Notes under the pieces: model-generated
The model's database searches: none
What the model was told of the DNA's origin: nothing
What the model saw: only the letters and a program-made list of their open reading frames with translations
Program-made: the position numbers and the translations under genes
NCBI GenBank assembly: GCA_963751035.1
Contig: CAVVSW010000005.1
Coordinates: 1,072,425-1,136,424 of the forward strand
Source of the DNA: an uncultured Actinomycetota bacterium
GTDB taxonomy: Bacteria; Actinomycetota; Actinomycetes; JACCUZ01
DNA: 64,000 nucleotides
Direction: 5' to 3'
Part shown: piece by piece, positions 23,790-28,092 of the stretch
How positions within the stretch are numbered: the stretch's first letter is position 1
Layout of the letters: the number at the start of each line of letters is the position of its first letter

Positions 23790-24112
23790 TTATCTGTCAC
23801 GTGAGGCAGGTCCCTCGATCGCCTTGGGCGTTGTTGCCGTCATGCCCGAAAAGGTCTCGATGCGTTCCCGCCCGCTGTTGGCGAACACGACGGACAGATA
23901 GGGCAGAACGACCGCGGCGGCGATCATCACCCAGCGCAGCCAGCCATCTGTGAAGACCGCGAGCAGGAAGCAGACGGTCCGCACTCCCATGGAAATCAGG
24001 TAGCGGCGGGTCCGGCTGTTGACGTCGTCGCGCACGCCGGGCCGGGCACCCGTGATCTGGTGGATCGGCGGGCGGTCGCGCCGCCAGAGGCTGGCCGGTC
24101 CGCGGAAGGACG
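23790..24112 (-). CDS. DUF3099-like small membrane protein
   Basis: The protein reads …RPPIHQITGARPGVRDDVNSRTRRYLISMGVRTVCFLLAVFTDGWLRWVMIAAAVVLPYLSVVFANSG. It has two TM helices after a basic N-terminus, which is the typical actinobacterial DUF3099 layout. The start is probably GTG near 24112. Confidence 0.45.
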
Positions 24113-24291
24113 TCACTCCTCCACAGTAGGTCAGCCGTGGCGGAACGCACCGTCCAGGATCCTCTGCACCGTGGTGAAAGAGATTCTCCGGCGCAGGTAT
24201 CTGGCAGGGCGATGTATTTCTGGCACCCCGATGACCCTCCCTCCTCGGACGAGTGCACCCGGCACTCAAACAAGGACGGAAGAGGCTCAAC

Positions 24292-24780
24292 ATGAAGCTC
24301 GACTCGATGAAGCGGCGCGTGGCAGCGGTCGGCCTGGTGGCCGCGAGCGTGCTCGCTGGAGTGGGTGCCACCACTGCTCTCGGTGGTGCCGCGCAGGCCA
24401 TCCCGCTGTACGAGAAGTCCTGCAAGCTCGACGTTGCCAGCAACACGGCAGTCAACGGCTGGCGTGCGGTGAACTCGTCAGTGCGCGTGGTGAACAACGT
24501 CGGCCGCTACGTCGTGGTCAACTTCAACGCCGACGCCGGCGTGGACTCCCTCGCGGAGATCCGCCTGGGCTACCGCGTCGACTCCGGCCCGATCCAGCTC
24601 GTCGGTGCGCAGAACTTCGCAAACCACACCGAGTACTGGCAGACCCGGCACAGCATGGTCGTGCTGTCCGTCCCCGCCGGCACCCACACCATCCGGCCGT
24701 ACTGGCGGATCAGCGGTGCCCCTGGCAAGAACGGCATCATCGCGGCTCGCTGCCTGACGGCTGAGGCCTACACGCACTGA
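24292..24780 (+). CDS. hypothetical secreted protein (Sec signal peptide, beta-rich; no recognised domain)
   Basis: The protein reads MKLDSMKRRVAAVGLVAASVLAGVGATTALGGAAQA / IPLYEKSCKLDVASNTAVNGW…RISGAPGKNGIIAARCLTAEAYTH. There is a clear signal peptide with an AQA cleavage site and two Cys in the mature part. A long perfect hairpin follows it. Confidence 0.5.
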   Translation: MKLDSMKRRVAAVGLVAASVLAGVGATTALGGAAQAIPLYEKSCKLDVASNTAVNGWRAVNSSVRVVNNVGRYVVVNFNADAGVDSLAEIRLGYRVDSGPIQLVGAQNFANHTEYWQTRHSMVVLSVPAGTHTIRPYWRISGAPGKNGIIAARCLTAEAYTH

Positions 24781-24789
24781 TCGCCTGAC

Positions 24790-24835
24790 ACGGAACGAGG
24801 GGGTTGGAGCATCGGCTCCGACCCCCTCGTTCCGT
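24790..24835 (+). terminator. 21-bp near-perfect stem-loop (intrinsic-terminator-like) right after the secreted-protein gene
   Basis: The left arm is aCGGAACGAGGGGGTTGGAGC (24790-24810). The loop is atcg. The right arm is GCTCCGACCCCCTCGTTCCGt (24815-24835). There is one G-U wobble. No strong U-tract follows. Confidence 0.5.
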
Positions 24836-24911
24836 TGTCACGAAAACGCGAGTCGCGGGGGCGGGCAGGCGCTGTAATGAGCGGTAGTCGTGAGTGAGGA
24901 GAGATCTTCAG

Positions 24912-25676
24912 ATGCCGAAGTTCGGTGACCAGAAAATCAAGGTCGGTGAGTACTCGAACGGCCGGGCGAAGTACGTCACGCGTCGCCATTACGCCAAGAT
25001 CAAGATGGCCGAGAAGCGACTCGGCTACCCGATCACCGTTGTGCAGGGCAGCTATCACACCGGCGTACCAGCCTCCGCCGGCACGCACGACAAGGGCGGT
25101 TGCCTCGACCTCGCGCCCTTCGAGTGGAAGCGCAAGTGCCGGGTCTTCCGCGAGCTCGGCGACACCGCTTGGCATCGCAGCGCCCGCCCGGACGTGTGGA
25201 ACGAACACATCCACACCGTCGATCTGGGCTGCTCGAACCTCGCTCACATCAGCAAGCAGCAGGTGAAGGACTACCGCAACAAGCTCGACGGTCTGAAGAA
25301 CCCCAAGCCGGACCCCCAGTGGCGGCCGGACCCGATCCCCGAGTTCAAGCTGACCCTCGCCATGATCGGGACGCTGTGGCCACAGAGCAAGGTCCGACGG
25401 GTCCGGCGGGTGGACCTGAACAAGGCCCGCGAGCAGGCCGAGTCCGCAAACCCCACGCCGAATGCCGGCGTGAAGCTGATCCAGCGAGCGCTGAACAAGG
25501 CAATCGGCGCCAAGCTTCTGGTTGACGGCAAGTTCGGCGAGGTCACCAAGAAGGCCTACACCGCGTTTCAGAAGTCGCTCGGCCTCACCGGGGACGACGC
25601 CGACGGTCTGCCCGCACCCTTCAGCCTGGGGAAGCTCTCGAAGACTCGGGGCGCGCGGTTCACGATCACCCAGTAA
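24912..25676 (+). CDS. LAS-superfamily (peptidase M15-like) zinc peptidoglycan peptidase with a C-terminal PG_binding_1 domain; endolysin-like, no signal peptide
   Basis: The N-terminal domain reads …GSYHTGVPASAGTHDKGGCLDLA (HxxGxCxDL = HxxGxAxD-type zinc site)…WNEHIHTVD (ExxH). The C-terminal domain reads …GVKLIQRALNKAIGAKLLVDGKFGEVTKKAYTAFQKSLGLTGDDADGLP, which is the classic peptidoglycan-binding repeat. GC is lower than in flanking genes. Confidence 0.65.
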   Translation: MPKFGDQKIKVGEYSNGRAKYVTRRHYAKIKMAEKRLGYPITVVQGSYHTGVPASAGTHDKGGCLDLAPFEWKRKCRVFRELGDTAWHRSARPDVWNEHIHTVDLGCSNLAHISKQQVKDYRNKLDGLKNPKPDPQWRPDPIPEFKLTLAMIGTLWPQSKVRRVRRVDLNKAREQAESANPTPNAGVKLIQRALNKAIGAKLLVDGKFGEVTKKAYTAFQKSLGLTGDDADGLPAPFSLGKLSKTRGARFTITQ

Positions 25677-25890
25677 GCGGCCGGCGGACGAGCGCACGAG
25701 CGTCGCCCTCCGCTTCGGCGCGAGGGGTGCTGGCGCATCAGCCGGGGTGGGGCTCGGCAAGCCGGCCGACCAGCCGCCTCGATTTGTGCAGGTTTCGACG
25801 ACCGGCCACGCAGTCAGGACTAGCGAGTCACAGAGTGGCGTATTCCGCTGGCAACCAGCCCAATAGAAGAGCAGACTTTCGCCAGGAGCG

Positions 25891-26640
25891 ATGCCGTTGG
25901 AGGTTGCCGTGTCGAATCCGGTTCCTGGCCACACTGTCAAGACCCCCTTCCACAAGCGCGGGCCCGACTGGAAGACCTGCAAGGTCCGTAACAAGGACAC
26001 CAAGGACCAGACGGCGCTGCACACCGGCGTGGACATCCCCGCACCGAAGGGGACTCCCGTGGTCGCCGCCCGCGCAGGTGTGACCAAGCACGTCGACTTC
26101 GGTCCCTCGTTCGGGACCAGACAGCTCGCGGTCCTCTGCGACGACGGGACGGAGGACTTCTACGCCCACATGTCCAGCCGAAAGCCGGGCGGGCGGAAGG
26201 TGAAGGCCGGCGACAAGATCGGCGAGGTCGGGAACTCCAGTAGTACGCCGGGGCTCGGGTTTCACCTGCACTTCGAGCGGCACAAGAAGCACGCGGCGAA
26301 CTGGGGCTGCGGCATCGTCGTCAACCCTGAGCCCTCACTGCGAGCAGGCGAGAACACGAAGGCTGCGAGCAGCCCTCGCGTGCTTCTGTCGGAACTGCGG
26401 TTCGGCACGAAGAGCTCGAACTCCGTCCGACGGCTGCAGAGGACGCTGAACAAGCACCGCGAACCCGAGGACCCGAAGGTGTCGCCCACCGGCAACTACC
26501 TGGTCGACACCGACGCGGCCGTGCGCCGGTGCCAAGAGAGGCACAACTTCGGCGCCGACCCCGTCAAGAAGTCATTCGTCGGGCCACTGCAGGCGGCGCA
26601 CCTGTTCGCCAACACGAAGAACATCGTGGACGACCTCTAA
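25891..26640 (+). CDS. peptidase M23 (LytM-type) family protein with a C-terminal peptidoglycan-binding-like domain; endolysin-like, no signal peptide
   Basis: The HxxxD motif is HTGVDIPAPKGTPVVAARAG. The HxH motif is GNSSSTPGLGFHLHFERH. The C-terminal 80 aa read …VRRLQRTLNKHREPEDPKVSPTGNYLVDTDAAVRRCQERHNFG…, which resembles a PG_binding_1 repeat. Confidence 0.75.
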   Translation: MPLEVAVSNPVPGHTVKTPFHKRGPDWKTCKVRNKDTKDQTALHTGVDIPAPKGTPVVAARAGVTKHVDFGPSFGTRQLAVLCDDGTEDFYAHMSSRKPGGRKVKAGDKIGEVGNSSSTPGLGFHLHFERHKKHAANWGCGIVVNPEPSLRAGENTKAASSPRVLLSELRFGTKSSNSVRRLQRTLNKHREPEDPKVSPTGNYLVDTDAAVRRCQERHNFGADPVKKSFVGPLQAAHLFANTKNIVDDL

Positions 26641-26681
26641 GGGTCACTAACGGAAGAGAGGTGTAGGGCCGCGCCAACGGC

Positions 26682-28088
26682 TCAGGAGGCTTGGCTCACC
26701 GAGGACATGTTGAAGTCGGCGATCCGCCAGGCCGGCATTGCCGTACGGGTGAAGTAGTCGTTCCACTCGCGGGCCAGCGTCCGCTCGGTCAGGCCCACCT
26801 CGGCGAGGCGGCCGAGCAGGGCAACGGGGCTCTCGTTGAACCGGAAGTTGTTGACCTCCGCGACGACCTCGCCGCCTTCGACCAGGTAGACGCCGTCGCG
26901 GGTGAGCCCGGTCAGCAGGAGGGTCTGGGGCTCCACCTCGCGGATGTACCAGAGGCAGGTCAGCAGCAAGCCGCGCTCGGTGTCGGCGATCATCGCCTCC
27001 AGACCCCGGGTCGCGTCGCGCTGACTCGAACAGCAGGTTGTCCACGCCCGGTGTGAACGGCAGGCCGGTCAGCTCGGCCGAGTGCCGCGTCTGCATCAGG
27101 GCGGTCAGCGAGCCGTCGTTGAGCCAGTCGGTCGAGTTGATCGGCAGGCCGTTGTCGAACACCGACTGGGCTGCGTTGGACGAACCCGCGACGACGAACG
27201 GCTCGCACTCGAGCCCCTCTGCGGCGGGGTCGCTCCACATCCGCACGGGCGTCTCGGTGAGGCGCTCGCCCACCCGCGTGCCACCGCCGGCACGGCTGAA
27301 CACGGTTTTGCCGTCGTTGGCGTCACGCGCGACCGAGGACCAGTACTGGTAGATGAGCAGGTCGGCCACGGCGCTGGGAGGGAGCAGCGTCTCGTAGCGA
27401 CCGGCGGGCAGGTCGACGCGCCGCTGCGCCCAGCCCAGCCTGCGGCGCACCTCTGCGTCCAGCGCCGACACGTCCACGTCGGTGAAGTCGCGGGTGCCCT
27501 GGCCCACCCAGGTCGAGCGACTCCAGTCAGCAGACTTCCCGGTCAGCTCGATGCGACCCGACGGCTGGGCGTGGCGCCGGCGGAGACCGGTGGACGTCGC
27601 CAGATAGGCCGTCTCGACATAGTGCTCGGCGAAGCCGAACAGGTCACGCTGGTCGCCGCGGGCAGCCGTGAACGCCTCCCCGAGCGCAGGCGCGACGTCA
27701 CCGAAGACGCCGATGGACGTCTCGGTCGGCGGGTCGTCCCAGGTCGCGTCGGCACCCTCAGCCTCCGGGAGCGGGCGTGCGTCCTCCGCGGACCGCGACT
27801 CCTGGGCCTTGGCCTCGGCGGCGCGCACGATCGACTCGACCTCGTCCAGGCCGACGTTGCTGCGCGAGACCACGCCGGCAGCCGTCCCCTCCTGCCCGCC
27901 GATCGTCGCGATCACGGTGAGGGTCCGCCCGCGGGTCACGCCGTTGGTCGTCAGGGTGTTGCCGGCCCAGCGCAGGTTTGCCTCGCTGGTCTCCTCGGCG
28001 ATCACCACGCAGCCGTCGGCGATGGAGATCTCCAGGGCGCGCTCGGCGAGCTCCTGCGGCCGAAGCGCGGAGCCGGTCGACGCGGTGC

Positions 28089-28092
<4 letters not shown>
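26682..28092 (-). pseudogene. pmbA: TldE/PmbA family metalloprotease modulator (frameshift near 27000)
   Basis: The N-terminal 370 aa (MSTASTGSALRPQELAERALEISIADGCVVIAEETSEANLRWAGNTLTTNG…) and the C-terminal 103 aa (…GLLLTCLWYIREVEPQTLLLTGLTRDGVYLVEGGEVVAEVNNFRFNESP…) lie in different frames. It is translationally coupled to tldD. Confidence 0.8.

Follow-up and report, generated by a model that had tools for sequence, protein, structure and literature searches.

Why should a bacterial chromosome hold two adjacent genes for peptidoglycan hydrolases that look like phage endolysins, with no export signal of their own and no phage in the neighborhood? The question is raised by a 64,000-nucleotide stretch from an uncultured Actinomycetota bacterium (assembly GCA_963751035.1, contig CAVVSW010000005.1, positions 1,072,425 to 1,136,424), which we call the window and whose own numbering we use throughout. 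Between positions 24134 and 26698, in a variable islet that reaches from the start region of a DUF3099 gene to the stop codon of pmbA, lie three genes on the + strand: gene 1 (24292-24780), encoding a secreted protein of 162 amino acids; gene 2 (24912-25676), encoding a peptidase of 254 amino acids with a LAS-type signature; and gene 3 (25891-26640), encoding an M23 peptidase of 249 amino acids. The overall picture that we favor, with moderate confidence, is that genes 2 and 3 encode captured, functional phage-type lysins that now belong to the chromosome and have access to the wall outside the Sec and Tat pathways. Within this picture, the biological role and the export route carry the most doubt.

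Two peptidases without leaders

The open reading frame (ORF) of gene 2 opens at 24894, and we set the start at 24912 by reference to homologs, which are about 254 amino acids long and all begin MPKFGD. The product has an isoelectric point (pI) of 10.05, and its AlphaFold 2 (AF2) model has a mean predicted local distance difference test (pLDDT) score of 91.9. Residues 185-226 (25464-25589, + strand) match the peptidoglycan-binding domain PG_binding_1 (Pfam PF01471) with an E value of 4.7e-6 and 27.1 bits, against a Pfam cut-off of 23, and Foldseek matched this part of the model to the peptidoglycan-binding domains of 1LBU, 5NM7, 4XXT and 6TCI. The N-terminal catalytic domain (residues 1-144; 24912-25343, + strand) carries the motifs H59-x2-G-x-C-x-D66 and E98-H99-x-H101. 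We made three alignments of this domain, with 36, 57 and 90 sequences. None of the three shows any variation at H59 or D66; at H99 and H101 two show none, and the third has these histidines in at least 90% of its sequences. Together with H59 and D66, residues Q45, S55, T58 and R89 are invariant across the alignments. The conserved signature can be written SAGTHDGGGxxD...HxH, that is, Hx6D...HxH, within which HxxGx(A/C)xD is conserved and HxxGxAxD is the family consensus. Position 98 is variable in the family and may be E, A, H, W, P or G. An earlier note on this DNA had described gene 2 as a LAS peptidase with HxxGxCxD and ExxH motifs joined to PG_binding_1; the motifs and the domain are indeed present, but ExxH is no feature of the family, in which E98 varies and HxH is kept.

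The LAS motif, H-x(3-6)-D with H-x-H downstream, is found in gene 2 as H59-x6-D66 and H99-x-H101, and the strands that bear D66, H99 and H101 in the AF2 model follow an order that a LAS site would allow. The arrangement Hx6D...HxH is shared with the D-Ala-D-Ala carboxypeptidase of Streptomyces albus G (MEROPS M15A, 1LBU) and with the LAS enzymes VanX/VanY, Ply500 and the T5 endolysin. Like 1LBU, whose peptidoglycan-binding domain was matched both by profile and by Foldseek, gene 2 pairs a catalytic domain with PG_binding_1, and some distant members of the gene 2 family have the 1LBU-like order of signal peptide, PG_binding_1 and catalytic domain. Gene 2 itself differs from 1LBU in its reversed domain order, in its lack of a leader and in having no Pfam M15 match.

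This last point was pursued at several levels. The N-terminal 145 residues of gene 2 had no match in Pfam, NCBIfam or the PDB sequences, its PHROG matches cover only the C terminus, and Pfam had no match for the catalytic domain in 57 viral relatives or in 90 diverse ones. At E ≤0.01, none of the Pfam M15 models (VanY, M15_2, M15_3 and M15_4) matched this domain of gene 2 or of any of the 57 viral relatives; Peptidase_M15_3 appeared at E 0.08 in 2 of 36 homologs. A link from the gene 2 domain to Pfam M15 by way of the diverse relatives failed, as no profile matched. Comparison of the domain with the gene 3 family by hhalign was not significant, and a profile search of the PDB sequences returned peptidoglycan-binding domains only, or nothing. 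As one example that bears on classification, we point to P0388, a relative of 384 amino acids in which Peptidase_M15_4 (residues 69-133) is followed by a gene 2-like domain (172-297) and PG_binding_1 (328-366). Its M15_4 match, the only significant one, falls outside the gene 2-like domain; because the two are separate units, the gene 2 domain is better regarded as a family of its own than as a divergent M15_4. The presence of two LAS-motif domains in one lysin suggests that they may have different bond specificities. Judging from sequence, gene 2 probably works like a LAS/M15-type lysin; we do not file it as a member of M15, since the Pfam M15 profile test failed.

The gene 2 family is large. 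A phmmer search of 1.84 billion representatives identified 1,417 relatives of the catalytic domain (cluster representatives at the 50% identity level) at E ≤1e-3, and the partner domains in the family include GH25, CHAP, LysM, SLT, PG_binding_1 and a phage minor tail domain. An endonuclease/exonuclease/phosphatase domain (PF03372), an odd partner for a peptidoglycan peptidase, is fused in 22 of the 90 diverse family representatives (P0281-P0424, alignment A5). A full-text literature search for the motif AGTHDGGG returned no match.

Gene 3 is a new member of the M23 family. Residues 43-134 match Peptidase_M23 (PF01551) with an E value of 4.6e-17 and 62.4 bits, against a cut-off of 28.7, and H44xxxD48, H93 and H125xH127 are intact across 46 homologs; the product has a pI of 9.8. 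With an alternative GTG start at 25909 the product has 243 amino acids, the form recorded for the source contig. In its full set of HxxxD, H and HxH motifs and its significant Pfam match, gene 3 resembles the M23 enzymes of the lysostaphin/LytM type. Unlike these, it has no signal peptide, SH3b or LysM domain, it ends in a divergent PG_binding_1-like tail, and its catalytic domain opens at about residue 3, with a conserved NPVPG N terminus. PG_binding_1 matches residues 176-223 of gene 3 at E 1.2e-3 and 19.4 bits, below the cut-off of 23, and a PF01471 match is recorded for several homologs; on these sequence matches, a divergent PG_binding_1-like module is at most probable. The M23 peptidase with HxxxD and HxH motifs and a PG-binding-like C terminus that the earlier note had described is thus recovered, with a sub-threshold match for its second part.

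Neither peptidase can carry a signal peptide, because the stop-to-stop ORFs leave almost no room for upstream extension: 0 codons could be added to gene 2 and 8 to gene 3. The correction of the gene starts therefore added no leader to the two peptidases that had been described as leaderless from the start. The same condition prevails in their families: in a crude hydrophobicity screen, a hydrophobic segment at the N terminus was seen for 6 of 196 proteins in the gene 2 family and for 0 of 81 in the gene 3 family.

Relatives in phages and on chromosomes

A leaderless catalytic domain followed by PG_binding_1, or by a module like it, is the arrangement of actinophage endolysins (lysin A), and the likeness of genes 2 and 3 to such enzymes, proposed earlier from the layout, is supported by phage relatives of both genes. 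A protein 42% identical to gene 2 and with the same LAS plus PG-binding layout (P0015) is encoded on a phage contig, L092, beside terminase and portal genes. It is preceded by an ORF with two transmembrane segments and followed by ORFs of 60 amino acids (two transmembrane segments) and 31 amino acids (one), and this neighborhood is a classical holin-flanked phage lysis cassette. The gene 2 catalytic domain is encoded at 77 IMG/VR loci, with 28-51% identity; some of the proteins are small and lysin-sized, and in others, of 1,100-2,200 amino acids, the domain lies at the C terminus. The C-terminal 110 residues of gene 2 are 30-42% identical, by tblastn, to the C termini of Streptomyces phage endolysins. 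For gene 3, the IMG/VR contig L173 encodes a relative with 49% identity (418 amino acids, with an extra C-terminal domain) that lies 3' of tape-measure and tail-fiber genes; mycobacteriophage lysin A and domains within tape-measure proteins share about 35% identity with the gene 3 M23 domain. Phage relatives above approximately 50% identity were not found. We also observed that a single viral genome among the 77 loci, IMGVR_UViG_2865859272_000007 (L143, L166), has gene 2-like and M23 domains 2-3 kb apart.

Genes 2 and 3 differ from actinophage lysin A genes in that they are chromosomal, have no holin, lysin B or phage gene nearby, were separately acquired, are under purifying selection and use host codons. 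The lysis cassette with a holin by which a phage endolysin is recognized is absent around the islet and present around the relative P0015. Division of lysin A function between two adjacent genes has been documented in the lysis cassettes of Gordonia phages (PMC9671378). Two tandem peptidases, which the earlier note had called unusual, are accordingly less remarkable than they seemed: adjacent lysin genes are known, and the tandem here comes from separate insertions.

Homologs on other chromosomes have varied neighborhoods. In L003 (3799-5650), a homolog 72% identical to gene 2 is located in a housekeeping region, with ftsK and a rodZ-like gene to one side and miaB, pgsA and cinA to the other. 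It adjoins genes for a protein of 225 amino acids with weak DUF4287/AHSA1 similarity and for a protein of 73 amino acids with a holin-like look; the latter has a charged C terminus and two hydrophobic stretches by eye, of which a hydrophobicity scan called one. In L095 (7001-14396), a homolog 52% identical to gene 3 lies 3-6 kb from a ribbon-helix-helix (RHH)-Fic pair, a tyrosine integrase, an excisionase-like helix-turn-helix protein and a TrwC relaxase, either within or adjacent to an integrative conjugative element. The contexts in L090 and L091 contain no mobile-element genes.

Separate acquisition in a variable slot

To ask whether the three genes are part of the ancestral gene order, we used TldD as a query against one genome per GTDB species, which returned 80 loci; the closest is from an uncultured Actinomycetota metagenome-assembled genome (MAG), with approximately 80% TldD identity. 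The order fabI-fabG-tldD-pmbA...moaA is common to many of the 80 loci, including most of those from Streptomyces, and homologs of genes 1-3 within 10 kb were found at none of the 80. In the closest locus (L004), blastn homology to the window stops at 24133 and resumes at 26698, so that the 2,565 bp of the islet correspond to 318 bp. The earlier note had considered that orthologs might occupy this locus in all related genomes, as core genes would; none are present at L004 or at the other 79 loci.

Genes 1 and 2 are both present in every contig from the closer relatives (91-95% nucleotide identity), and variation is concentrated in the slot that follows. The sequences diverge exactly from the gene 2 stop codon to the pmbA stop codon (window, 25677-26681; L001, 6762-7266; L002, 6452-6509; L175, 7388-9333). 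This slot holds the M23 gene in the window and L174; a gene for a GlsB/YeaQ/YmgE-like membrane protein in L001 (6881-7135); a gene for an EAL-domain protein with two small ORFs in L175, L176 and one 47-kb contig; and nothing, in 57 bp, in L002. Gene 3 is absent from L001, L002 and L175. Many Streptomyces loci have a homolog of the GlsB-like gene at the corresponding site, between pmbA and moaA (for example L020, 13079-13309, and L048, 13141-13386). This gene probably held the slot ancestrally and was then lost or replaced in the lineage of the window. No repeats were seen by eye at the slot boundaries, where no dedicated repeat search was made. From the differing slot states it follows that two or more insertions built up the islet, at a junction of convergent genes that is prone to recombination. 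We considered whether genes 1-3 form a conserved module and rejected this, as gene 1 occurs alone elsewhere, gene 3 is an insertion polymorphism, and only one viral genome among the 77 loci pairs gene 2-like and M23 domains.

No integrase, relaxase, transfer gene or other phage gene was found near the islet, in the window or in close relatives. With flanks of housekeeping genes and no integrase, tRNA, holin or phage gene nearby in profile and tRNA searches within the 64 kb of the genome that were covered, the locus is not a prophage, as the earlier note had maintained. By the usual signs of a genomic island, the islet shows absence from the syntenic site and shows neither mobility genes nor deviant codon usage or GC3, the guanine-plus-cytosine (GC) content at third codon positions.

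Base composition and selection

The islet had been described as having lower GC content and AT-richer codons than its flanks, and only the first half of this description is upheld. Its GC content is 0.655, against 0.708 for the whole window; no other 2.5-kb segment is lower, sliding windows as low as this make up only 0.9%, and total GC is thus not homogeneous in a windowed check. The codons are not AT-richer. GC3 is 0.88 in genes 1-3, against 0.89 ± 0.06 for the background of 28 window genes (z -0.1 to -0.2), and an index modeled on the codon adaptation index and built on window genes is at background (z +0.4, +0.1 and -0.45 for genes 1, 2 and 3). Lysine is encoded across the three genes 52 times by AAG and once by AAA. 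The GC deficit is confined to codon positions 1 and 2, and the products of genes 2 and 3 contain 8-11% lysine, where the background has 1.8% (z 6-8). The dip therefore reflects the amino acid composition of lysine-rich, basic proteins and not AT-rich codons. Because GC3 and codon adaptation are host-like, composition gives no evidence on recent import, and we ruled out recent foreign DNA as something that composition would reveal here.

We estimated selection by the Nei-Gojobori method from the ratio of nonsynonymous to synonymous substitution rates (dN/dS), comparing the window with L174, an Illumina contig that carries the same trio. L001 and L002 were left out because their genes are fragmented, apparently by many frameshift errors. 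The dN/dS ratio is 0.19 for gene 1, 0.135 for gene 2 and 0.22 for gene 3, with dS of 0.18-0.26. As judged from these sequence comparisons, the three genes are under purifying selection and are functional rather than debris. All three products are basic (pI 9.3-10.1), as is usual for wall-binding lysins, and we counted this in favor of retained function. Taken with the phage relatives and the lack of leaders, dN/dS values of 0.13-0.22 for the islet bear out the earlier proposal of endolysin-like, leaderless zinc peptidases that have probably been domesticated.

A proposed route to the wall

We propose that the islet is a flexible junction between the convergent DUF3099 and pmbA/tldE genes of a host with approximately 70% GC, and that its three genes would have been acquired separately. 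The products of genes 2 and 3 would be made in the cytoplasm as leaderless proteins. The C-terminal module would bind peptidoglycan, and the N-terminal zinc peptidase would cut stem-peptide or cross-bridge bonds. Because there is neither a Sec or Tat signal nor an adjacent holin, the wall would be reached only by membrane failure or by an unlinked holin-like route. Membrane failure might be a loss of integrity in the producer, as in LytA-like autolysis or a release that kills neighbors; the alternative would be non-classical export by a holin-like protein encoded elsewhere. The likely role would be conditional autolysis, or lysis of kin or competitors, and not routine wall growth. The analysis itself establishes the gene structures, domains and catalytic residues, the lack of leaders, the pattern of presence and absence, purifying selection and the phage relatives. 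Bond specificity, the route to the wall and the biological role are the parts of this proposal that we infer.

Leaderless autolysins of phage ancestry, such as LytA, and bacteriocin-like prophage lysins are analogs of release by membrane failure. From background knowledge, the pneumococcal LytA-type autolysins offer a functional analogy to genes 2 and 3, being likewise chromosomal and leaderless, with a phage-lysin-like catalytic domain joined to a wall-binding module and with access to the wall that does not depend on Sec. They differ in that LytA is an amidase with choline-binding repeats, whereas genes 2 and 3 encode metallopeptidases with PG-binding modules. Holin-like non-classical export is among the subjects treated in a review (PMC9527704) and in the context of PMC9671378.

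Several observations weigh against capture of functional phage-type lysins, and we set them out together. All of the close homologs that could be placed (52-77% identity) are chromosomal singletons, in L003, L090, L091 and L095; since the closest homologs that could be placed (60-95% identity) are all chromosomal and not phage-borne, the capture must be old or the donor phages unsampled. Host-like codons would be expected just as much after transfer between similar high-GC genomes as after long residence. The assignment of gene 2 as a LAS enzyme is putative, being drawn from motifs and the order of secondary structure in the model alone: Foldseek of gene 2 against the PDB aligned the PG-binding domain only, and hhalign of its catalytic domain with the M15 endolysin Ply500 brought the metal-site motifs (HxxGxxxD and His) into register but was not significant, at a probability of 1% and E 0.05. 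Finally, no holin-like gene adjoins the islet, and a tblastn search of the window with three small membrane proteins from related loci returned nothing.

Alternative explanations

We weighed five rival explanations, none of which suits the data better. The genes could instead be housekeeping autolysins for growth, division or cell separation, exported by a signal that is not recognized. Purifying selection and host codons would be expected of such enzymes, genes 1 and 2 are constant among close relatives, and some distant members of the gene 2 family are classical secreted enzymes with signal peptide, PG_binding_1 and catalytic domain in that order. Nevertheless, we consider this explanation unlikely, as the locus is without the genes in the nearest reference genome and in 79 other actinobacterial genomes, the presence of gene 3 varies even among close relatives, 190 of 196 members of the gene 2 family and all 81 of the gene 3 family are leaderless, and the domain order is that of the phage members and not of the secreted bacterial ones. 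Leaderless proteins would also suit peptidases that act in the cytoplasm on peptidoglycan precursors or recycled muropeptides, in the manner of VanX or LdcA; the LAS enzymes are known to include VanX, a cytoplasmic dipeptidase, and a Peptidase_S66 (LD-carboxypeptidase) gene is found about 5 kb away in relatives. We regard this as very unlikely, given that both proteins carry modules aimed at the polymeric wall and are strongly basic, that their relatives are phage lysins fused to GH25, CHAP or LysM, and that the genes are variable rather than core.

A history in phages need not imply a present function, and the pair might be the decaying remnant of a prophage lysis cassette. The phage-type leaderless layout, the phage-borne relatives in both families and the variation of the region among strains would all fit such a remnant. 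It is made highly improbable by dN/dS values of 0.13-0.22 with every catalytic residue intact, by codon usage that is fully host-like, by the lack of other phage genes, an integrase or a tRNA nearby, by the separate arrival of genes 2 and 3, and by the occurrence of close homologs of each as singletons in other chromosomal contexts. A further source of wall hydrolases is the integrative or conjugative element, which may use them to pierce the wall for DNA transfer, and the gene 3 homolog in L095 (52% identity) is indeed 3-6 kb from an integrase and a TrwC relaxase. That M23 gene and the relaxase lie on opposite sides of the integrase, however, so that the M23 gene may sit outside the element; the contexts in L090 and L091 are free of mobile-element genes; and no integrase, relaxase or transfer gene is near the islet in the window or its relatives. 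We therefore think it very improbable that genes 2 and 3 are cargo of this kind. Least probable of all, to the point that we give it hardly any credence, is an abortive-infection module whose lysins, triggered by phage, would lyse the cell early: a variable islet with leaderless lytic enzymes would be in keeping with it, but PADLOC matched neither the three proteins nor the small proteins that flank them, and there is no sensor or regulator gene in the islet. On the strength of the PADLOC result, a defense system was ruled out as a candidate.

The secreted product of gene 1

Gene 1 is unrelated to the lysins and merely shares the islet with them. Its limits (24292-24780) were taken from the ORF listing and an analysis of GC3 by frame. 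The earlier note had called the product a secreted, beta-rich protein of 162 amino acids, and both attributes were confirmed. A Sec-type leader with the cleavage site AQA|IP is conserved across the family and would leave a mature form of approximately 126 amino acids with a pI of 9.3; the crude hydrophobicity screen picked out a hydrophobic stretch at the N terminus of 71 of the 91 family members. The cysteines C44 and C154 are conserved, and the core is very strongly so (for example VVVNFNADAGV and RPYWRISG). The AF2 model, made from 48 homologs, has an all-beta core with pLDDT above 90. No match to gene 1 was found in Pfam, NCBIfam, PHROG or PADLOC.

The top Foldseek matches in the PDB are the TNF-like lectins PLTL and BC2L-C-Nt, the chlamydial protein Pgp3, C1q and carbohydrate-binding module (CBM) folds, and Bacillus exosporium proteins, with E values of about 1e-6, template modeling (TM) scores of 0.5-0.68 and identity of about 10%. 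We predict from the model that gene 1 is a TNF/C1q-like jelly roll, a statement made at the level of the fold. Its best matches, the lectins from Photorhabdus (PLTL) and Burkholderia (the N-terminal domain of BC2L-C) and the C1q-like exosporium proteins of Bacillus, reach TM scores of at most 0.68 on the target, and like the TNF/C1q-like lectins, gene 1 is small and secreted. Unlike a firm lectin match, the likeness is one of fold only, at about 10% identity, in a jelly-roll fold that is common and for which CBM folds score nearly as well. A candidate secreted glycan-binding protein is a reasonable guess from the modeled fold.

The gene 1 family is a very conserved family of small secreted proteins that moves between chromosomal sites. 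Homologs of 67-76% identity occur as single genes, as in L084 (8001-8489), a metagenome contig where the gene is located between rplY-pth and prs-glmU, and a homolog in L087 (6001-6501) is likewise a single gene in Terrabacter genomes. IMG/VR viral contigs contained no relatives of gene 1.

Flanking genes and intergenic signals

Genes within about 6 kb on either side of the islet are housekeeping genes. A profile search identified, on the left, GH15, SURF1, moaA, a small conserved ORF and the DUF3099 membrane protein, and on the right, pmbA/tldE, tldD, fabG and fabI. The conserved left flank is the DUF3099 gene (23790-24116, - strand; 108 amino acids; PF11298, E 3.6e-25), which occurs in relatives with the islet and in relatives without it. 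The conserved right flank is pmbA/tldE (26682-28092, - strand; Pfam PmbA_TldD_3rd), which has an apparent frameshift near 27018. In a tblastn alignment with the intact PmbA of L175, the frame shifts from -2 to -3 between 27019 and 27017; the gene is truly a pseudogene, or else the split arose as an error when the source MAG was assembled.

Genes 1 and 2 are separated by 131 nt and genes 2 and 3 by 214 nt. Immediately 3' of gene 1 is a strong hairpin (24786-24843, + strand) that is terminator-like and without a U tract; its predicted RNA fold has an energy of -52.2 kcal/mol (z = -10.3 against shuffles), and the consensus terminator scan did not pick it up. The gap lengths and this hairpin are compatible with separate transcription units. 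Scans of the region for sigma-70 promoters and U-tract terminators gave no matches, and hairpins 3' of genes 2 and 3 were no better than shuffles. The spacer between genes 2 and 3 is 63 nt in the otherwise collinear L174, which lacks a segment of approximately 150 nt (25690-25846, + strand). Neither the window nor the loci used for comparison contained a second copy of this segment, its fold is unremarkable, and we rejected a repeat element as its identity for lack of another copy. A riboswitch or other RNA in the long spacers, such as the cyclic-di-AMP class found upstream of wall hydrolases, was likewise ruled out, as Rfam at its gathering threshold had no match in the whole 64-kb window. 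A tRNA search of the same window found none, and the window has no small transmembrane protein that adjoins the islet on the same strand.

Significance

Captured, chromosomal phage-type lysins are an already-known kind of gene, and the newest element here is the large, unclassified catalytic family to which gene 2 belongs. How leaderless lysins reach the wall without a linked holin is a real biological question and not a new one; the rest of the finding is ordinary. We offer tentatively, and with more doubt than belief, a joint reading in which the N-terminal domain of gene 2 represents a distinct LAS-type family of peptidoglycan peptidases, and in which the leaderless chromosomal copies represent a regulated, holin-independent lysin route in uncultured actinobacteria. 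The family part of this reading is suggested by the size of the family (about 1,400 cluster representatives), its frequency in uncultured actinophage-like contigs, and its coexistence with M15_4 in P0388. If the route exists, it would have lysins deployed for autolysis or for the killing of neighbors.

For enzyme discovery, gene 2 opens a large catalytic family with a LAS motif that is undescribed in Pfam, NCBIfam and the PDB sequences, and PHROG does not match the catalytic region of gene 2 either. Gene 3 supplies a compact combination of M23 and a PG-binding module. Both proteins are basic, small and modular, which makes them candidate lysins against actinobacterial walls. If what we infer about their origin and use is right, the locus would be a clear case from nature in which phage lysins have been retained as functioning genes of the host, at a chromosomal hot spot in a lineage that has no cultured representative.

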